A stretch of DNA of 39,669 nt from a virus (Duplodnaviria; Heunggongvirae; Uroviricota; Caudoviricetes). The number at the start of each line of letters is the position of its first letter. Within the stretch, counting starts at the first letter, position 1. Shown one piece after another: positions 430 to 7,220 of this stretch. The notes below the pieces were generated by a model, which did no database searches, was not told where the DNA came from, and saw nothing but the letters and a program-made list of their open reading frames with translations. Made by a program: the position numbers and the translations under genes. Location: IMG/VR virus record IMGVR_UViG_2778261033_000015; one strand, 5' to 3'.

Positions 430-1167
430 TCATTCACTCTCTTTCAAACCAGTTTTAACTGTTTGTGGTTTTGGGTAAGGCTGGACTTTGAATAGCTTTG
501 TGTTGAGGCGTTTTCTGGCCCTCTTGTTCAGAAACCGGATGTAACGAAACTGTCGGAACTTATGCACACTGGCTCTGTCGATATTAGCCCTCAGATGTTC
601 ACCTCGTTGTCCGCCTCGTTTAATGGCATTCCTGCAAATCTCGTGATACCACTCGCCATCAAGTTCATAGAATGTTGATTCATGGCTGCCTACATAATCA
701 AAATTGCTTGCCTGATACACGACACCAAGACAGCCACAACGCTCATCTGCAAACGACTGAACCCACTGTACCTGCGGATAAAGCTGCCTGATTAGCTTGA
801 GCGCGTAACTGATTGCCCTTGATTCGGAGTTTCTCGGCATACAGTCATGCATCCATAGCCGGTTAAGCTCCATATATTCTCGGTTCTGCGTACCCGTTAC
901 GACGCGTGCACCACTGTTTGGGTTAAGGGCGTAACCCCATTGCATTACGCCAACAAGTTCCCGTTCTGAAAATATACCCAGATGAAGGTAGGAATTATTT
1001 ACGAAACGGTGGCTGTAATGTTTATTGACGATAACCAGTCTGGCCAGCCAGCAACTTATTGTCTCAACCCGCAACTCACGGGAGCCATAACCAACGATAT
1101 TGTCGTTATAGCGAATAAGTTCAGGCGTGCTGATGATACGGGATGTGACTTGCTTTCTGTTCCCCAC
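430..1167 (-). CDS. mom: DNA modification protein Mom
   Basis: 245-aa ORF with the Mom-like ...NKHYSHR... segment; last gene before the phage end; its start overlaps the stop of the upstream com-like ORF as in Mu. Confidence 0.8.
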
Positions 1168-1321
1168 GACAGGATTTCCTTGTGTATGTGGGGTGCTCTG
1201 TGGCGCTCGGAGATGTGATTTGATTGAGGGTTTTACTGCGCGGACATTTTACTTCCAGATAACTGAAACTGGCCCGTGCCAGTAGCTTATTGCAGTGTCG
1301 GCACCGTATGTTTCGATACAT
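1121..1321 (-). CDS. com: Com, zinc-finger translational activator of mom
   Basis: ...[29 protein letters not shown]... resembles Mu Com (IRCKNCNKLL...EIRCPRCK); overlaps mom start. Start set at internal Met (1321); the ORF extends to 1366. Confidence 0.75.
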
Positions 1322-1359
1322 GACCGCATAACCTCCTGCTTTGTTGTTGATGCCTTTCT

Positions 1360-1395
1360 CATGCAATCGATCGACAAAAACGATCGATTCGATTT
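1360..1395 (-). promoter_or_regulatory. Candidate Dam-methylation-sensitive regulatory region upstream of com/mom
   Basis: Palindromic ATCGATCGACAAAAACGATCGAT with two GATC sites (1369-1372, 1382-1385), 13 bp apart, about 50 bp upstream of com; Mu has a GATC cluster in the equivalent place. Confidence 0.45.
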
Positions 1396-1938: not shown

Positions 1939-2184
1939 TTACATCATAGTACCGTCAGTTCCGGGCTGAACCGGCTCTGGTTGCTCTACGGGTTGAGGAT
2001 CATTTTCCGTGCTGTTTTCAGCCGGAGAACGGCCAACCATTCGGGCCAGCACTTCATCAACATATGCGTCGATTTGTGCCTCAAAATCCTTGCGAACCTG
2101 CGCCTTCAGCACGCGGTTCACTTCTTCAGAATAAAGTGCCTGTTTGACAAGCTCTTCAGTAACCGTGCCTTTAATCTCTGGCAT
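1939..2184 (-). CDS. Hypothetical 81-aa acidic protein (cargo island)
   Basis: ORF with strong RBS (AAGGAG, 7 nt before ATG); acidic, Pro/Glu-rich C-terminus. Confidence 0.5.
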   Translation of the reverse strand: MPEIKGTVTEELVKQALYSEEVNRVLKAQVRKDFEAQIDAYVDEVLARMVGRSPAENSTENDPQPVEQPEPVQPGTDGTMM

Positions 2185-2219
2185 GAATATTCTCCTTTTG
2201 CAGGTATATTGCCCCGTTA

Positions 2220-2402
2220 TCAGAGCGGGGTCGGGTCGTTTGGGGATGACGGTGCCTGTGCTGTTTTACTGAGTTTTTCAGCTGCCGCATCATCAATTTT
2301 ACGGCGAATATAATTTCTGATGACCTTATAACCACCGCTCACCAGATATAACGCACTGACCACAGCGCAGAAATAAAGCAGCATTGTATGAACGAATGTC
2401 AT
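2220..2402 (-). CDS. Hypothetical 60-aa small membrane protein (cargo island)
   Basis: RBS AAGGTAAGG before ATG; N-terminal hydrophobic helix (LLYFCAVVSALYLVSGG) followed by basic tail. Confidence 0.5.
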   Translation of the reverse strand: MTFVHTMLLYFCAVVSALYLVSGGYKVIRNYIRRKIDDAAAEKLSKTAQAPSSPNDPTPL

Positions 2403-2548
2403 ATAACCTTACCTTTGATATTGACTACATAATTCGTTATCGGGTAAAAACATCGAAGCGACTGATAACCACTCCTTCGGGAGTATTTTTATTTTCCTTT
2501 ATGGGTTAGGTAGCTCCCGCCAGCCATATCATGACCGGCGGGATTTTT

Positions 2549-4588
2549 TTATTCTGTTACCGCTTTTTTCACTTCCACCACAATGCTGTCAATCAGCACC
2601 GGGTAAGTTGCATTTTTTGTGATATCCGTTACGCGGAGTTTGTCCACCGGGAAAGTTCCTACTGGTGACTGCGTCAGGGTAAACGCGGCACCATCCTGAC
2701 CATCAATAACCGGAATAACCTGAAGGCTGTTATTTCCTGCAAAACGGAAGGCCAGCGTATGCCATTCATTATCAAATGCACCAAAGGTTCCCAGTTTCTG
2801 GTTATTTGTTGCCACTTTTGCATTGTGGTACATCACATTCAGGTCTTTTGCGTCTGTCTGGATGTAGAACGATGCCAGCAGATTATTCCCTGCATCCCCT
2901 GTCAGGGTGACACCCTGCGGCAGAGAGGAAACCGGCCAGTAAAGCCCCATGACATACTGGTTTGCCACCAGGTCGCCAGGTACTTTAAAACGACAACTGA
3001 TTAAACCACCATTTTTCAGCAGTTCAGCACCAGTACCGGCATCATGATCCAGATACCAAGATGATTTACCTGTTTCCTTGGTCAGTTTCATTGCCTTACC
3101 ACCTGTGCCTCCTGCATCACTGATAATTTCAGCTTTACCGCCAGCCGGCTCCCAGCCCTGGGCTTTCAGATTTCCTTCTGACTCACTGACACGATAAGAC
3201 AGCAGTGTTGTGGTTACTGCTTCAGTTTCTGAAGGTGACGGCACTGGTGCTTCAGTTTCAGAAGATGGAACATCGGCTTTTACTGTGGTTCGCCCCGCAT
3301 GAGTCAGAACTGCCGTGGCCAGACGGTCGGAAATAATCCCACGACGTGCCCATGAACTGAAATGGCTGGCCCGGTCCGCAGATGTCCAGGTGGCGGCACT
3401 GTTACGCCACGTTGAGCCGTAATAACCAATGGATTCAATATCCGGGTCTTCTGCCGGATTGTTGGTGGGTACATTCGCGTCATTTTCATCTGTCATTAAT
3501 GGAACGAAATGAATGTTTTTATCTGTTTTGTTTTTGTAGCCGCCATAGATTGCCTGGTATGCCGGTTCATTTTTCTGTTTCCAGAAATACGTGGTATCGC
3601 CACAAATCCACGGAACGCCAGCAGCACTGCCACCGGTACACTGTTCCGCCTGTTCAGCCAGGTCTGCGCGGAATTTTTCCACCATCGCCAGAAACAGCGC
3701 GGAATGCTCCGTCGGCTTCGCATCAATATCAAACTCGCCCTGCATCCACACCACAGCAAGCAGGCGGTTTTTCGGGTTCTTCGCCAGTGCCGCTTTTGTC
3801 CGGCTGATTAAGTCCTTATACAGCGGCTTATCCACACCCCAGCGGGCTGAGTCCTCTGAAGCACCCGTGCTGTCACTGTACGTGCCGTCAGCACCCGCCG
3901 TGAATGCAGAACCACCACGGCAGCAGGGAACCAGCAGAATCCCCGCATCTGCCGGAATAAACGGCAGCAGTTTTTTGGCAATGTGAAGCCCCTGACCCAC
4001 GGTGCCATATTGCCCTTTAGCCACATCCGCTTTCGGGTGATTTTTTCCACTCATATCCTGCACATCATGCAGACAGTGGTCGGCCAGAATGATGTCGTTA
4101 TACTGACAGGCTTTACCTCCCGGCGTGACTGTACTGCGACGGGCTAACTGCATAATACGCGGTTCGGGGCGGTCATATGTCTCCGGCAGTGGCAGACCTT
4201 CACCGTAAGCCATACCGTTTGACTGACCAGCAAGAACCACCACGTAATACCAGGAAGGGGAGCTGGAAGCAGTTTCATTTCCTGACGGACGGGTATGTGT
4301 TTCAGCATTATCCCAGTCTGACGGTTCAGCAGTACCGGCAACATCAGCACTTAACGGAATGACCGCACCAATACCCGCTCCGGTAATTTCCACACTCGGA
4401 TCACCGGATACTGGCCTTACCCACAGGCAATCCCGTGTATTAAAACTGATGAGACAGTCAGCAAATGTCATTCCTCCTTTTGTTTCGGCCGGAGGAAAGG
4501 GAGCCTCAAGAAATGCCGCTGTACCACCGGAAACTTTAACAGTAAAGTTTCCGGGCATTGATGATAGTTGAACCCATTTGGACGTCAT
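2549..4588 (-). CDS. SASA/SGNH-family carbohydrate O-acetylesterase with C-terminal lectin-like domain (prophage cargo; resembles NanS-p type sialate O-acetylesterases)
   Basis: 679-aa ORF with GQSNGM (catalytic Ser block), WMQGEFD (SASA block II) and a ~220-aa beta-rich C-terminal region (...NEWHTLAFRF...). Sits between gin and com/mom, where Mu has no gene. Confidence 0.75.
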   Translation of the reverse strand: MTSKWVQLSSMPGNFTVKVSGGTAAFLEAPFPPAETKGGMTFADCLISFNTRDCLWVRPVSGDPSVEITGAGIGAVIPLSADVAGTAEPSDWDNAETHTRPSGNETASSSPSWYYVVVLAGQSNGMAYGEGLPLPETYDRPEPRIMQLARRSTVTPGGKACQYNDIILADHCLHDVQDMSGKNHPKADVAKGQYGTVGQGLHIAKKLLPFIPADAGILLVPCCRGGSAFTAGADGTYSDSTGASEDSARWGVDKPLYKDLISRTKAALAKNPKNRLLAVVWMQGEFDIDAKPTEHSALFLAMVEKFRADLAEQAEQCTGGSAAGVPWICGDTTYFWKQKNEPAYQAIYGGYKNKTDKNIHFVPLMTDENDANVPTNNPAEDPDIESIGYYGSTWRNSAATWTSADRASHFSSWARRGIISDRLATAVLTHAGRTTVKADVPSSETEAPVPSPSETEAVTTTLLSYRVSESEGNLKAQGWEPAGGKAEIISDAGGTGGKAMKLTKETGKSSWYLDHDAGTGAELLKNGGLISCRFKVPGDLVANQYVMGLYWPVSSLPQGVTLTGDAGNNLLASFYIQTDAKDLNVMYHNAKVATNNQKLGTFGAFDNEWHTLAFRFAGNNSLQVIPVIDGQDGAAFTLTQSPVGTFPVDKLRVTDITKNATYPVLIDSIVVEVKKAVTE

Positions 4589-4687: not shown

Positions 4688-5248
4688 TTATTTTTCCGAA
4701 ACGCTCGCAGGATAATAACGATAAAGGGTTGAAAGGCCGATATCAAAAATAAGTGCCACCTGTCTTCGACTGACACCCCCGGCCAGTAAACGCCCGACCT
4801 GCTCGTATTGTTCCTGCGTGAGACGACGGGGTCTGCCGCCGGTTCGTCCCCTTTCACGGGCAGCTGCAAGACCAGCCCGTGTCCGTTCGACAATTAATTC
4901 ACGCTCCATTTCTGCCAGCGCACCCATTATGTGAAAAAAGAAGCGCCCCATGGGGGTTGACGTATCAATGTTGTCAGTAAGACTACGAAAATTTATCCCC
5001 TGTTGCTGTAATTCATCTGTCAGCGCAACAAGGTGGCGCATACTGCGCCCCAGCCTGTCCAGTTTCCAGACCATCAGTGTGTCACCGGGTTTTAGTTTCT
5101 TCAGTGCCCGCTTCAGTCCCGGCCGCTGTGTCGTTTTACCACTCATTTTATCTTCAAAAATCTGCTCACATCCTGCACATTCCAGCGCATTTCTTTGTAA
5201 ACCTGTGTTCTGGTCATTTGTTGATACGCGTATATAGCCAATCAGCAT
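4688..5248 (-). CDS. gin: Serine recombinase, DNA invertase Gin
   Basis: MLIGYIRVSTNDQNTGLQRNAL...GRPRRLTQEQ... near-identical over long stretches to Gin/Hin/Pin/Cin invertases; adjacent to the invertible segment. Confidence 0.95.
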   Translation of the reverse strand: MLIGYIRVSTNDQNTGLQRNALECAGCEQIFEDKMSGKTTQRPGLKRALKKLKPGDTLMVWKLDRLGRSMRHLVALTDELQQQGINFRSLTDNIDTSTPMGRFFFHIMGALAEMERELIVERTRAGLAAARERGRTGGRPRRLTQEQYEQVGRLLAGGVSRRQVALIFDIGLSTLYRYYPASVSEK

Positions 5249-5303
5249 GTATTTACCTTCCTTAAAAAGAGGTGGAAAGGCCTTTTAAAGCAGATATACG
5301 GCA

Positions 5304-5327
5304 TCCCTGAAACCTCGGTTTACGGGA
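5304..5327. other. gix-like crossover site (gin-proximal)
   Basis: TCCCTGAAACC-TC-GGTTTACGGGA: imperfect palindrome matching the Mu gix half-site TTCCTGTAAACC; 2-bp core TC. Confidence 0.55.
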
Positions 5328-5673
5328 TACTGTAAACAGGGCCGCGAATGCCCTGCCATCGAACGGAGCGGCTGTTGCAGCGAATAAACTCGCCACTCCA
5401 AGAAATATTAATGGTGTCCCATTTGACGGAACGCAGGATATAAATATTACATCGGGGATGACGCAGTCTGTGGCTGACTCACGTTATGTTCAAAGCATTC
5501 GAAGAGGTTCAAGGTCAACGATTGGAATGCAATATAATATTTTTGAGGTTCCTGACGGATGCGTACTTACAGGGCTTGATGTCGCTGGTGATGGTAATGC
5601 AACGGTAACCGCATATTATCGACCTGTTCAGTTTCTGATAGATGGTTCGTGGAAAACAGCTTCCAGCGCATAA
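5316..5673 (+). CDS. Silent alternative tail-fibre C-terminal cassette (S'v), no start codon of its own
   Basis: Plus-strand frame reads GLRDTVNRAANALPSNGAAVAANKLATPRNINGVPFDGT...YYRPVQFLIDGSWKTASSA, parallel to the C-terminus of the expressed fibre; open from the gix site onward. Confidence 0.65.
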
Positions 5674-5752
5674 AAGTGCAGTAGTTCAAAAAACAGATTA
5701 TCTGAATAAATATATGATGATTTTGTCTTTTCAACAAAAACAAGGTGAAATA

Positions 5753-6274
5753 ATGGAGCTTATTAACGTAAAACGATATTACCCGGAACACAAACCCTAT
5801 GGTGAGGATGTTCAGTATTTCCAGAGTGAGGACGGAAGGGATTTTTATGAATCTATCCCGCTTTTCACAAAGAAATACAAACTCTGTATTTCGCCTGTAA
5901 CGGGTATTATCTGCTCTGTTGCTGAAGATGTCTCTGCTTTATATCCGGCAGGTTTTACTGTTGTTGAAGTGGACGAACTGCCGGAAGGTGTGAATATTGA
6001 CGGTAACTGGCAGTTTTCTGATGGCCTGATATCAAAGGTGCCGGTAAACTGGAAGACGGTTGCTGAAAAGCGCCGCTCATCGCTGCTCCAGGAAGCCAAC
6101 GAAACTGTGGATGACTGGAAAACGGAATTAAAACTGGACATGATTAGCGATGAAAATAAATTACAGCTGACGCGCTGGATGGCGTATATCCGACAGCTTA
6201 AAGAAATGCACTTTAATGATATTGCCAGTGAGGGGCATTACCAGGCGATTCCCTGGCCGGAAAAACCGGAATAA
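5753..6274 (+). CDS. Tail-fibre assembly chaperone (Tfa / U-like)
   Basis: 173 aa from ATG 5753 (RBS AAGGTG); C-terminus ...TRWMAYIRQLKEMHF...IPWPEKPE is typical of Tfa chaperones; directly downstream of the S'v cassette. Confidence 0.7.
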   Translation: MELINVKRYYPEHKPYGEDVQYFQSEDGRDFYESIPLFTKKYKLCISPVTGIICSVAEDVSALYPAGFTVVEVDELPEGVNIDGNWQFSDGLISKVPVNWKTVAEKRRSSLLQEANETVDDWKTELKLDMISDENKLQLTRWMAYIRQLKEMHFNDIASEGHYQAIPWPEKPE

Positions 6275-6308
6275 TTCAGAGGGTGCATTCAGCACCCTTT
6301 TCTGTGGT

Positions 6309-7220
6309 TTACACTGAACTTACCGTTCTCCAGGCATTATTAATATAAATCTGAACCGGGCGATAATAGACCCCACCGATATTGTCCGCAGACCGGGAGC
6401 CGGTTTCCTGCACGTTAATTCCGGAAAGCATACAACCGGAAGGTGCGCTGTAATTCCATGACATTTCATTGCCTCCGGGTGAATGATAGCTCTGTGCTCC
6501 AAGCTGAACATTCTGTACATACCGGCCATCTGCGGTTGACTGCGTCATTCCTGACGTGATGTTGATATCCAGCGTTCCGTCAAAAGGAACACCATTAATA
6601 TTTCTTGGGGTGGCGAGTCTGTTTGCTGCCACGGCGGTTCCACCCGATGGCAGGGCATCAGCAGCCTTATTTACCGTTTCCCGTAAACCGACGTTATCGA
6701 TAAAAGCGCCTTTATCCGGAATGTCTGCGCCGTTCTGCTCCCTGCGCAGGTAACGGTTATCACCTTCGCTTTTGCTGTAAACATCCAGATTATTACGGGC
6801 GGTTCCCGCATTCTCCAGGTCGGCAAGGTTCTGATCCTTCGCCAGAGCATTAACGTCACCGGGACCAAGACTGTTTTTTGTGGCAAGCGCCCCAAGACCA
6901 AGATAACCACGGGCAAGACGCTGGGCTTCCGCACCGGCATCAGCAATTTCTTTCAGGTTGTTTTTCCGGGAAAAGGCATTCGCAGCGATAATGGCTTTAA
7001 TGGACAGCGTAAGCTGGTTTAACTGCGCCTTATCCGGCTGAATACTGGCTTCAGCCAGAATATTCAGCAGTTCGGCCTGGAGAATATTCAGCCAGTCCTG
7101 ACCAATCCAGCTGATACCTTTTTGTCCGTCACCTTCGGTAAACCAGGTGGTGGTATTACTCTGCGCCGGTGCCAGCGCAGGCATATTCGCCACGCCGGAA
7201 TTATTATCAACATGGAACAT
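6309..7220 (-). CDS. Tail fibre protein (S-like; constant part plus currently expressed variable cassette Sv)
   Basis: 303 aa from ATG at 7220 (RBS GAGGAG, TAATG overlap with upstream gene); N-terminus ...WFTEGDG... and C-terminus ...YYRPVQIYINNAWRTVSSV resemble P2 H / Mu S fibres; the gix site lies within it. Confidence 0.8.
   Translation of the reverse strand: MFHVDNNSGVANMPALAPAQSNTTTWFTEGDGQKGISWIGQDWLNILQAELLNILAEASIQPDKAQLNQLTLSIKAIIAANAFSRKNNLKEIADAGAEAQRLARGYLGLGALATKNSLGPGDVNALAKDQNLADLENAGTARNNLDVYSKSEGDNRYLRREQNGADIPDKGAFIDNVGLRETVNKAADALPSGGTAVAANRLATPRNINGVPFDGTLDINITSGMTQSTADGRYVQNVQLGAQSYHSPGGNEMSWNYSAPSGCMLSGINVQETGSRSADNIGGVYYRPVQIYINNAWRTVSSV
6679..6702. other. gix-like crossover site (within tail-fibre gene)
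   Basis: TCCCGTAAACC-GA-CGTTATCGATA; inner arm and core are the exact reverse complement of the inner arm and core of the site at 5304-5327. Confidence 0.55.

Follow-up and report, generated by a model that had tools for sequence, protein, structure and literature searches.

The window analysed here, a stretch of 39,669 nucleotides held in IMG/VR as record IMGVR_UViG_2778261033_000015, carries at positions 5303 to 6703 a true invertible host-range segment of the Gin type, related to the G segment of phage Mu but more compact, in which two alternative tail-fibre tips are found together with a single tail-fibre assembly (tfa) gene. Judged by its gene order and sequence identity, the window is the Mu-like prophage Sp18 of Escherichia coli O157 Sakai, an enterohaemorrhagic E. 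coli (EHEC). We found that the segment inverts in nature at the predicted crossover and that the design with one tfa is old and maintained, a conserved feature of a prophage family and not a one-off loss. On balance we favour the reading in which both tips share one Tfa, expressed whichever way the segment lies from a putative and probably activator-dependent promoter upstream of tfa. The invertible switch itself is not new: it is already known as part of Sp18, and the available part of the report of Asadulghani et al. 2009 (PMC2669165) scored the host specificity of Sp18 as '(+) atypical' and the prophage as otherwise intact. That part of the report gives no account of the single tfa, of its conservation across the family or of the pairing between tip and Tfa type (PMC2669165); the conservation and the pairing come from the present analysis.

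The invertible segment and its two states

The elements of the segment are as follows.

4688-5248, minus strand: gin homologue, serine DNA invertase of 186 aa (Pfam Resolvase, E = 1.4e-51; HTH_7, E = 1.7e-14; PHROG 'DNA invertase')
5303-5328: gix site 1, adjoining gin, equivalent of Mu gixR; ATCCCTGAAACC TC GGTTTACGGGAT, core TC at 5315-5316
5311-5492 with partner 6514-6695: inverted repeat of 182 nt, 79% complementary
5317-6689: invertible segment, 1373 bp between the cores
5317-5673, plus strand: S'v cassette, alternative tip of 118 aa, unfused in the window state; last ~66 aa homologous to Mu S 436-504
5674-5752, plus strand: enlarged spacer of 79 nt from the S'v stop to the tfa start, with the Shine-Dalgarno sequence AAGGTGA before the ATG
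5753-6274, plus strand: tfa, 173 aa, the sole tail-fibre assembly gene of the window (Pfam Caudo_TAP, E = 1.9e-18; PHROG 136, E = 1.1e-57)
6278-6300: G+C-rich, terminator-like hairpin between the convergent tfa and Sv, called on the plus strand in the window
6309-6689, minus strand: Sv cassette, tip of 126 aa now fused to Sc within a 303-aa open reading frame (ORF), with no tfa downstream; C-terminal ~75 aa homologous to Mu S 435-503
6678-6703: gix site 2, within the fibre gene, equivalent of Mu gixL; TTCCCGTAAACC GA CGTTATCGATAA, core GA at 6690-6691
6690-7220, minus strand: Sc, constant N-terminus of the fibre, 177 aa, aligning with Mu S 1-191

To ask the genomes for the other state, we inverted the segment in silico, cutting at 5316/5317 and 6689/6690, and searched the product against 5,426 complete E. 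coli genomes. The inverted sequence occurs at 100.0% identity over all 2801 bases and in one aligned piece in strains FORC_044, O157:H7 2-6-2 and 07_3636, and because precisely these bases are found inverted in natural genomes we conclude that the inversion is real. Of the genomes searched, 182 carry the window state and 23 the inverted one (counted at a coverage of at least 80%); looked up as exact sequences, the fusion proteins were located on at least 1000 contigs for Sc-Sv (303 aa) and on 153 for Sc-S'v (295 aa). The Sv state, in which no tfa follows the fibre gene, is thus the commoner one, with ~87-89% of records by the genome counts and by the contig counts, the latter including the figure of at least 1000. 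For FORC_044, PGAP gives the 295-aa Sc-S'v fibre and, after a gap of 79 nt, tfa; the Sv cassette is annotated there as an N-terminally truncated fragment. Several E. coli genomes have two or three copies of this prophage: 07_3636 (NZ_CP074928.1) has two, one in each orientation, and NZ_CP024056.1 and NZ_AP042500.1 each have a further copy that is 98.9% identical and lies in the inverted orientation.

The gix sites are 26-bp imperfect dyads in inverted orientation, their cores TC and GA being one dinucleotide read on opposite strands. Site 1 has dyad symmetry at 10 of 12 positions and is identical to Mu gixR at 19 of 26; site 2, whose reverse complement is TTATCGATAACG TC GGTTTACGGGAA, matches Mu gixL at 22 of 26. 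The two sites agree with each other at 11 of 12 positions of the inner arm and 5 of 12 of the outer arm. The 13-mer formed by inner arm and core, TCCCGTAAACCGA, has exact matches in the window at these two sites only, and three matches when up to two mismatches are allowed, against 0.75 expected by chance; no third gix site was found in the 39.7-kb window. Both in Mu (GLQETVN) and here (GLRETVN) the sites fall on homologous codons of the fibre gene, and the inverted repeat that includes the inner arms has an identity profile that fades after ~5483.

The adjoining gin homologue encodes, as expected for the Gin/Hin/Cin/Pin inversion systems, a small serine recombinase with a resolvase catalytic domain and a C-terminal helix-turn-helix, identical to Mu Gin at 136 of 185 residues (73.5%) in an ungapped alignment. 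Ser9 (in MLIGYIRVS) and Met114 are conserved; the role of the catalytic S9 in Gin has been described, and the change of Met114 to Val renders Mu Gin Fis-independent (PMC3575834). The first 100 nt of the gene, in the 5' part where a Fis-dependent recombinational enhancer would be expected, are 82% identical to Mu gin (42/50 and 40/50).

The fibre is of the Mu S type, with homology to Mu S both in the baseplate-proximal domain at its N-terminus and in the receptor-binding tip at its C-terminus. The 303-aa protein matches Mu S in the Protein Data Bank (PDB) entry 5yvq_A with a whole-protein E = 4.3e-49; its residues 1-198 correspond to Mu S 1-191 and its residues 229-302 to Mu S 435-503, so that it is a shortened Mu S (303 vs 504 aa) from which the central ~240 residues (roughly 190-435) are absent. 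After inversion S'v is in frame with Sc and yields a fibre of 295 aa; both fusions are open and both are annotated in genomes, giving two alternative C-termini on one constant N-terminus, as in segments of the Mu/P1 type. Sv and S'v are 57% identical overall, ~85% over the first ~58 residues and far less beyond. The unfused S'v cassette holds an internal ATG that opens a 71-aa ORF (5458-5673, plus strand) coinciding nearly exactly with the tip domain, and no convincing ribosome-binding site precedes this ATG.

An earlier reading of the letters of the window (the sequence-only reading) had proposed a Gin-invertible tail-fibre segment here, and all its structural claims held up: two gix-like sites in inverted orientation with complementary cores at exactly these positions, two alternative tips that share the GLRETVN region and, as we now see, both align with the Mu S tip, a window state in which the Sv fibre has no chaperone gene downstream, and an inverted state with a fused S'v fibre followed by tfa, which is what FORC_044 is annotated to carry. 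It had named the absence of detectable inversion as an outcome that would speak against it, and both states exist in natural genomes. Three details needed correction. The inner arms, given as identical, are nearly so, with one mismatch; the inverted repeat exists, at 182 nt and not ~120 bp; and the last base of site 2 is 6703, where 6702 had been given.

One tfa gene, retained in three allele groups

The product of tfa scores 67.3 bits against PF02413 (cut-off 22.1) and matches Mu U (PDB 5yvq_B, E = 2.3e-15), which places it by profile in Caudo_TAP. Searching the whole 39.7-kb window by tblastn with six diverse Tfa proteins revealed no second tfa. The sequence-only reading had seen a single tfa, behind S'v and convergent with Sv, and would have yielded to a second one on the minus strand; none was found there. 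The segment, and the window with it, therefore holds one tfa, not the one per tip (U and U') of Mu.

To see how general this layout is, we fetched 80 IMG/VR loci encoding relatives of the tfa product and located the tips, tfa, Sc and gin within every locus. The layout of Sp18, that is an upstream tip followed by tfa with a lone tip convergent to them, was present in 30 of the 80, and a second tfa in 0 of these 30. The 30 loci form three allele groups whose tfa genes are 98-100%, 62-64% and ~61% identical to that of the window and whose upstream tips differ; between the window allele and the other groups the synonymous sites of tfa are saturated, with a proportion of synonymous differences (pS) of 0.77-0.85. 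Since the one-tfa layout recurs in three groups separated by saturated synonymous divergence, we conclude that it is old and maintained. Orientation varies within the groups, Sc lying beside the arm with tip and tfa in 6 loci and beside the lone tip in 15. Canonical convergent segments with two tfa genes of the same family also exist (L067 and L083). A scan of genome contigs with Sc was uninformative, yielding no more than 4 loci (Citrobacter, Edwardsiella and two short matches), and a literature search found no described invertible segment with one tfa. The B segment of Shigella boydii, with pinB, is Mu-like in size and organisation.

The Tfa type accompanies Sv-like tips elsewhere

We then asked which tip this type of Tfa accompanies where no convergent tip is present, a situation found in 50 of the IMG/VR loci, 48 of them truly non-invertible. 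The tip upstream of tfa was Sv-like, defined as at least 55% identity to the Sv tip (observed 55-75%), in 35 of the 50, S'v-like in none and ambiguous in 15. Rac-SA53 shows the same association in its tail1/tail2 pair: the Tfa is 52.6% identical to that of the window over its full length, and the fibre tip before it shares 63.6% identity with Sv and only 38% with S'v. Loci of the Rac-SA53 type differ from the window in having no invertase and in placing tfa directly after the tip, in the same direction, with a gap of ~14 nt. Tips resembling S'v are rare outside the family. A scan of IMG/VR with the S'v tip gave only Sp18-like loci and one distant locus; such tips occur in Hafnia phage yong1 (51% identical) and in locus L096 (46%), each followed by a Tfa of the P2-G type that is 25-32% identical to that of the window. 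Because of the association in 35 of 50 loci and in Rac-SA53, the tfa of the window appears, from these comparisons, to be of the type that belongs with Sv-like tips, i.e. with the tip that here has no chaperone gene downstream.

In Mu, Tfa attaches to the distal fibre through its N-terminal domain, trimerisation depends on its conserved C-terminal domain, and Tfa stays on the mature fibre (PMC9608196). Both Sv and S'v are homologous to the tip of Mu S seen in the crystal structure with the chaperone U (5yvq), and since both thereby fall in a structural family that works with a Tfa, both tips probably need one.

Derivatives without gin keep tfa intact

In seven IMG/VR loci (L015-L020 and L024), as in at least seven complete E. 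coli genomes, nearly all of the upstream tip has been lost together with gin and the gix site beside it. They share the same single deletion of ~870 bp, which extends from the gin 3' end into the last codons of the tip and leaves the remnant '...TAYYRLII*', and from this common junction they have since diverged and carry different lone tips. These loci retain the fibre gene (Sc plus the lone tip, Sv-like in 5 of the 7) fixed convergent with tfa. The tfa gene is intact in all of them, with a ratio of nonsynonymous to synonymous change (omega) of 0.11-0.23 at pS 0.10-0.33 among them. An intact and constrained tfa in such loci argues against a non-functional Sv state and against a tfa that serves the upstream tip alone, and suggests that tfa functions while lying convergent to the fibre gene.

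Analysis of the lone tips gave a similar picture of constraint, Sv-type lone tips having omega values of 0.04-0.11 at pS 0.54-0.75, with pS of only 0.05-0.2 in the adjacent Sc. Synonymous divergence jumps from Sc to the Sv cassette within the same pairs of prophages (6309-7220 of the window compared with L013, L014, L017 and L020), so that the gix site, or the region shared by the two tips, marks a recombination boundary of tip swaps between phages. On these comparisons, the Sv tip is a constrained module exchanged among phages.

The spacer upstream of tfa

The gap between the stop codon of the tip and tfa measures 51, 79 or 120-134 nt in every Sp18-like locus, compared with 5-17 nt, usually 14, in the 48 non-invertible loci. 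Each of the three spacer types is closed by a good Shine-Dalgarno sequence, read directly from the sequence. The 65 nt nearest tfa in the type with 120 nt (type B) are 86-95% identical, against 78-83% at the third codon positions of tfa. The enlarged spacer would thus offer room for a control element upstream of tfa. G+C-rich hairpins of different sequence recur between tfa and the lone tip in all three spacer types and are called on the minus strand in L017 and L022.

In-frame ATGs upstream of tfa in the 120-nt spacer would add a hydrophobic extension of 17 aa, MAI[V/L]LFLFLSLIYMVMF (3450-3500 of L017; also L013, L015-L020 and L024). This extension may not be real because the first ATG is not conserved, being ATA in L023, L025 and L026; the stretch that would encode it is the most conserved part of the spacer. 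A candidate promoter picked by eye in the inverted repeat, TTGACG-16-TATTAC at 5423-5450, was dropped when it was not conserved in the other alleles.

How the lone tip might obtain its chaperone

Taken as a mechanism, the favoured reading runs as follows. Gin, presumably with host Fis, inverts the 1373-bp segment between the two gix sites and joins Sc either to Sv (303 aa) or to S'v (295 aa) as alternative receptor-binding tips. When S'v is joined, tfa would follow the fibre gene on a common transcript; when Sv is joined, as in the window and in most records, tfa would be read from the other strand and would need a promoter of its own in the enlarged spacer, with the hairpin at 6278-6300 expected to end both convergent transcripts. 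Several points weigh against this. Scans with the sigma-70 consensus of the window and of the two other spacer types gave no consistent promoter upstream of tfa. The window has no TTAT-N6-ATAA, the Mu form of the C box (Mu Pmom carries TTATGCCCCAATAA); the form TTAT-N4-ATAA occurs three times in the window, once in the spacer at 5698, and is too weak to interpret, and the gaps that are candidates for late promoters gave no trustworthy shared motif. The pairing of tip and Tfa is not strict, as in SfMu (gp52) and in a P2-like phage the Sv-like tip comes with a Tfa of the P2-G type. The constraint on tfa in the loci without gin could come partly from alleles imported by recombination, not from selection in place, and the 182:23 bias toward the Sv state may reflect clonal sampling.

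The sequence-only reading had left three options, that Sv is independent of a chaperone, that tfa acts in trans or that only one orientation yields functional fibres. The comparative data favour the second and disfavour the third without settling the question. It is rather unlikely, in our judgement, that the Sv tip folds without a chaperone and that tfa is there for S'v alone, in a layout that would then be economical. Gene order places tfa behind S'v only, no tfa promoter is recognisable for the Sv state, and that state is the commoner one in assemblies and evidently tolerated. However, Sv-like tips elsewhere are mostly followed within 5-17 nt by a tfa of the same family (35 of 50 loci) and Sv is homologous to the Mu S tip that complexes with Tfa; nor would one expect the loci without gin, which have lost the S'v-type cassette, to keep a tfa under constraint. 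We consider it unlikely that only the S'v orientation is functional, the Sv state being off, defective or dependent on Tfa from other EHEC prophages. In the Sv state tfa is antisense to late transcription, and lenders might be at hand, since EHEC prophage loci (L054-L086) carry tfa genes 54-56% identical to that of the window. Salmonella Hin, an invertase of the same recombinase family acting on the H segment, is a precedent for an invertible switch with an asymmetric, on/off outcome; Hin turns flagellin genes on and off by inverting a promoter, whereas the segment here swaps coding cassettes in frame. An off or defective state is difficult to reconcile with the strong purifying selection on Sv-type lone tips while they are exchanged among phages, with the lone-tip position kept in 30 of 30 loci and with derivatives without gin that are fixed in an Sv-like state, fibre gene and tfa intact. 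Sp18 DNA is also reported as efficiently packaged, a finding that speaks to packaging and not to infectivity (PMC2669165).

Plain decay, in which a canonical S-U / U'-S' segment of a degenerating prophage recently lost one tfa without functional meaning, strikes us as very improbable. The two-tfa segments of the same tfa family (L067 and L083), the two tfa genes of Mu and SfMu and a fibre shorter than Mu S could all be taken in its favour, yet the same layout recurs in three allele groups as diverged as those described above, all ORFs are intact and Sp18 was judged intact save for its 'atypical' host-specificity region, as far as the available part of that report goes (PMC2669165). Quite unlikely, though of interest for what it would mean, is that the layout forms a second layer of the switch; the alternative to this is a separately regulated tfa promoter, independent of orientation, that the family would have evolved within the segment. 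To our knowledge, such a promoter within an invertible segment is undescribed for Mu-type systems. As a second layer, inversion would toggle between an S' fibre capped by abundant, co-transcribed Tfa and a bare S fibre with little or no Tfa, and host range would change through the tip sequence and through the presence of the Tfa cap. Tfa of the Mu type is reported to remain on the distal fibre in the virion and to take part in receptor recognition (PMC9608196).

In the textbook view, invertible fibre segments hedge the host range of temperate phages and each tip is paired with its own chaperone. Here a widespread family of EHEC prophages has two tips and one chaperone gene that faces the commoner fibre state head-on, raising the questions of how the chaperone is supplied and whether one Tfa serves diverged tips. 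The answers bear on the engineering of phage and tailocin host range with fewer parts, and on the infectivity of Sp18-type prophages and their movement between EHEC lineages, a close relative being located inside Shiga toxin (Stx) phages.

Prophage neighbourhood and relation to known segments

The 2.8 kb around the segment are matched at 100% identity by many EHEC chromosomes, among them O157:H7, O111:H8 and O103:H2. On the minus strand the neighbours are, in order, a gp47-like baseplate J protein, gp48 (PF10076), the fibre gene, the segment, the Gin-type invertase, an esterase with SASA and DUF6645 domains, Com and Mom (PF25680). This Mu-type order together with the identity to EHEC genomes matches Sp18.

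The Mu G segment lies in the same neighbourhood of gp47, gp48, fibre, gin, com and mom, and the likeness extends to Gin, to gix sites at the same codons, to Sc and tips homologous to Mu S and to a Tfa homologous to Mu U. The two differ in length, 1373 bp here vs ~3.06 kb in Mu, and in the number of tfa genes, two in Mu and one here, which leaves one tip convergent with the chaperone gene. A single tfa likewise sets the window apart from the segments of P1 and SfMu. The latter is a Mu-like Shigella phage whose hosts belong to the same group and which likewise has a gin-type invertase, and the last 73 aa of its gp52 tip share 60% identity with Sv; it differs in its canonical set of two fibre and two tfa genes (gp49-gp52), with Tfa proteins of the P2-G/Mu-U type only 28-30% identical to that of the window.

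Beyond gin the following genes were recognised.

430-1167, minus strand: Mom homologue (PF25680, E = 5.8e-77)
1121-1366, minus strand: Com-like zinc-finger ORF, preceding and overlapping the Mom gene
1939-2184, minus strand: small DUF826 ORF (PGAP)
2220-2402, minus strand: small DUF1378 ORF (PGAP)
2549-4588, minus strand: protein of 679 aa with SASA (sialate O-acetylesterase-type) and DUF6645 domains, between gin and com/mom

The SASA/DUF6645 module (within 1939-4588, minus strand) separates gin from com/mom, whereas Mu has nothing at that position. We take the module to resemble cargo of Stx and lambdoid phages that was transferred into the Mu-like prophage. The DNA upstream of com/mom (430-1366) is rich in GATC, as at Mu Pmom, and has no C box of the Mu type. 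The annotation of two phages, Stx2c- and Stx1a-converting (L001, LC727881.1, and LC727895.1), shows a Mu-like phage 94% identical to the present one inserted in each, with duplication of 4 bp of the target.

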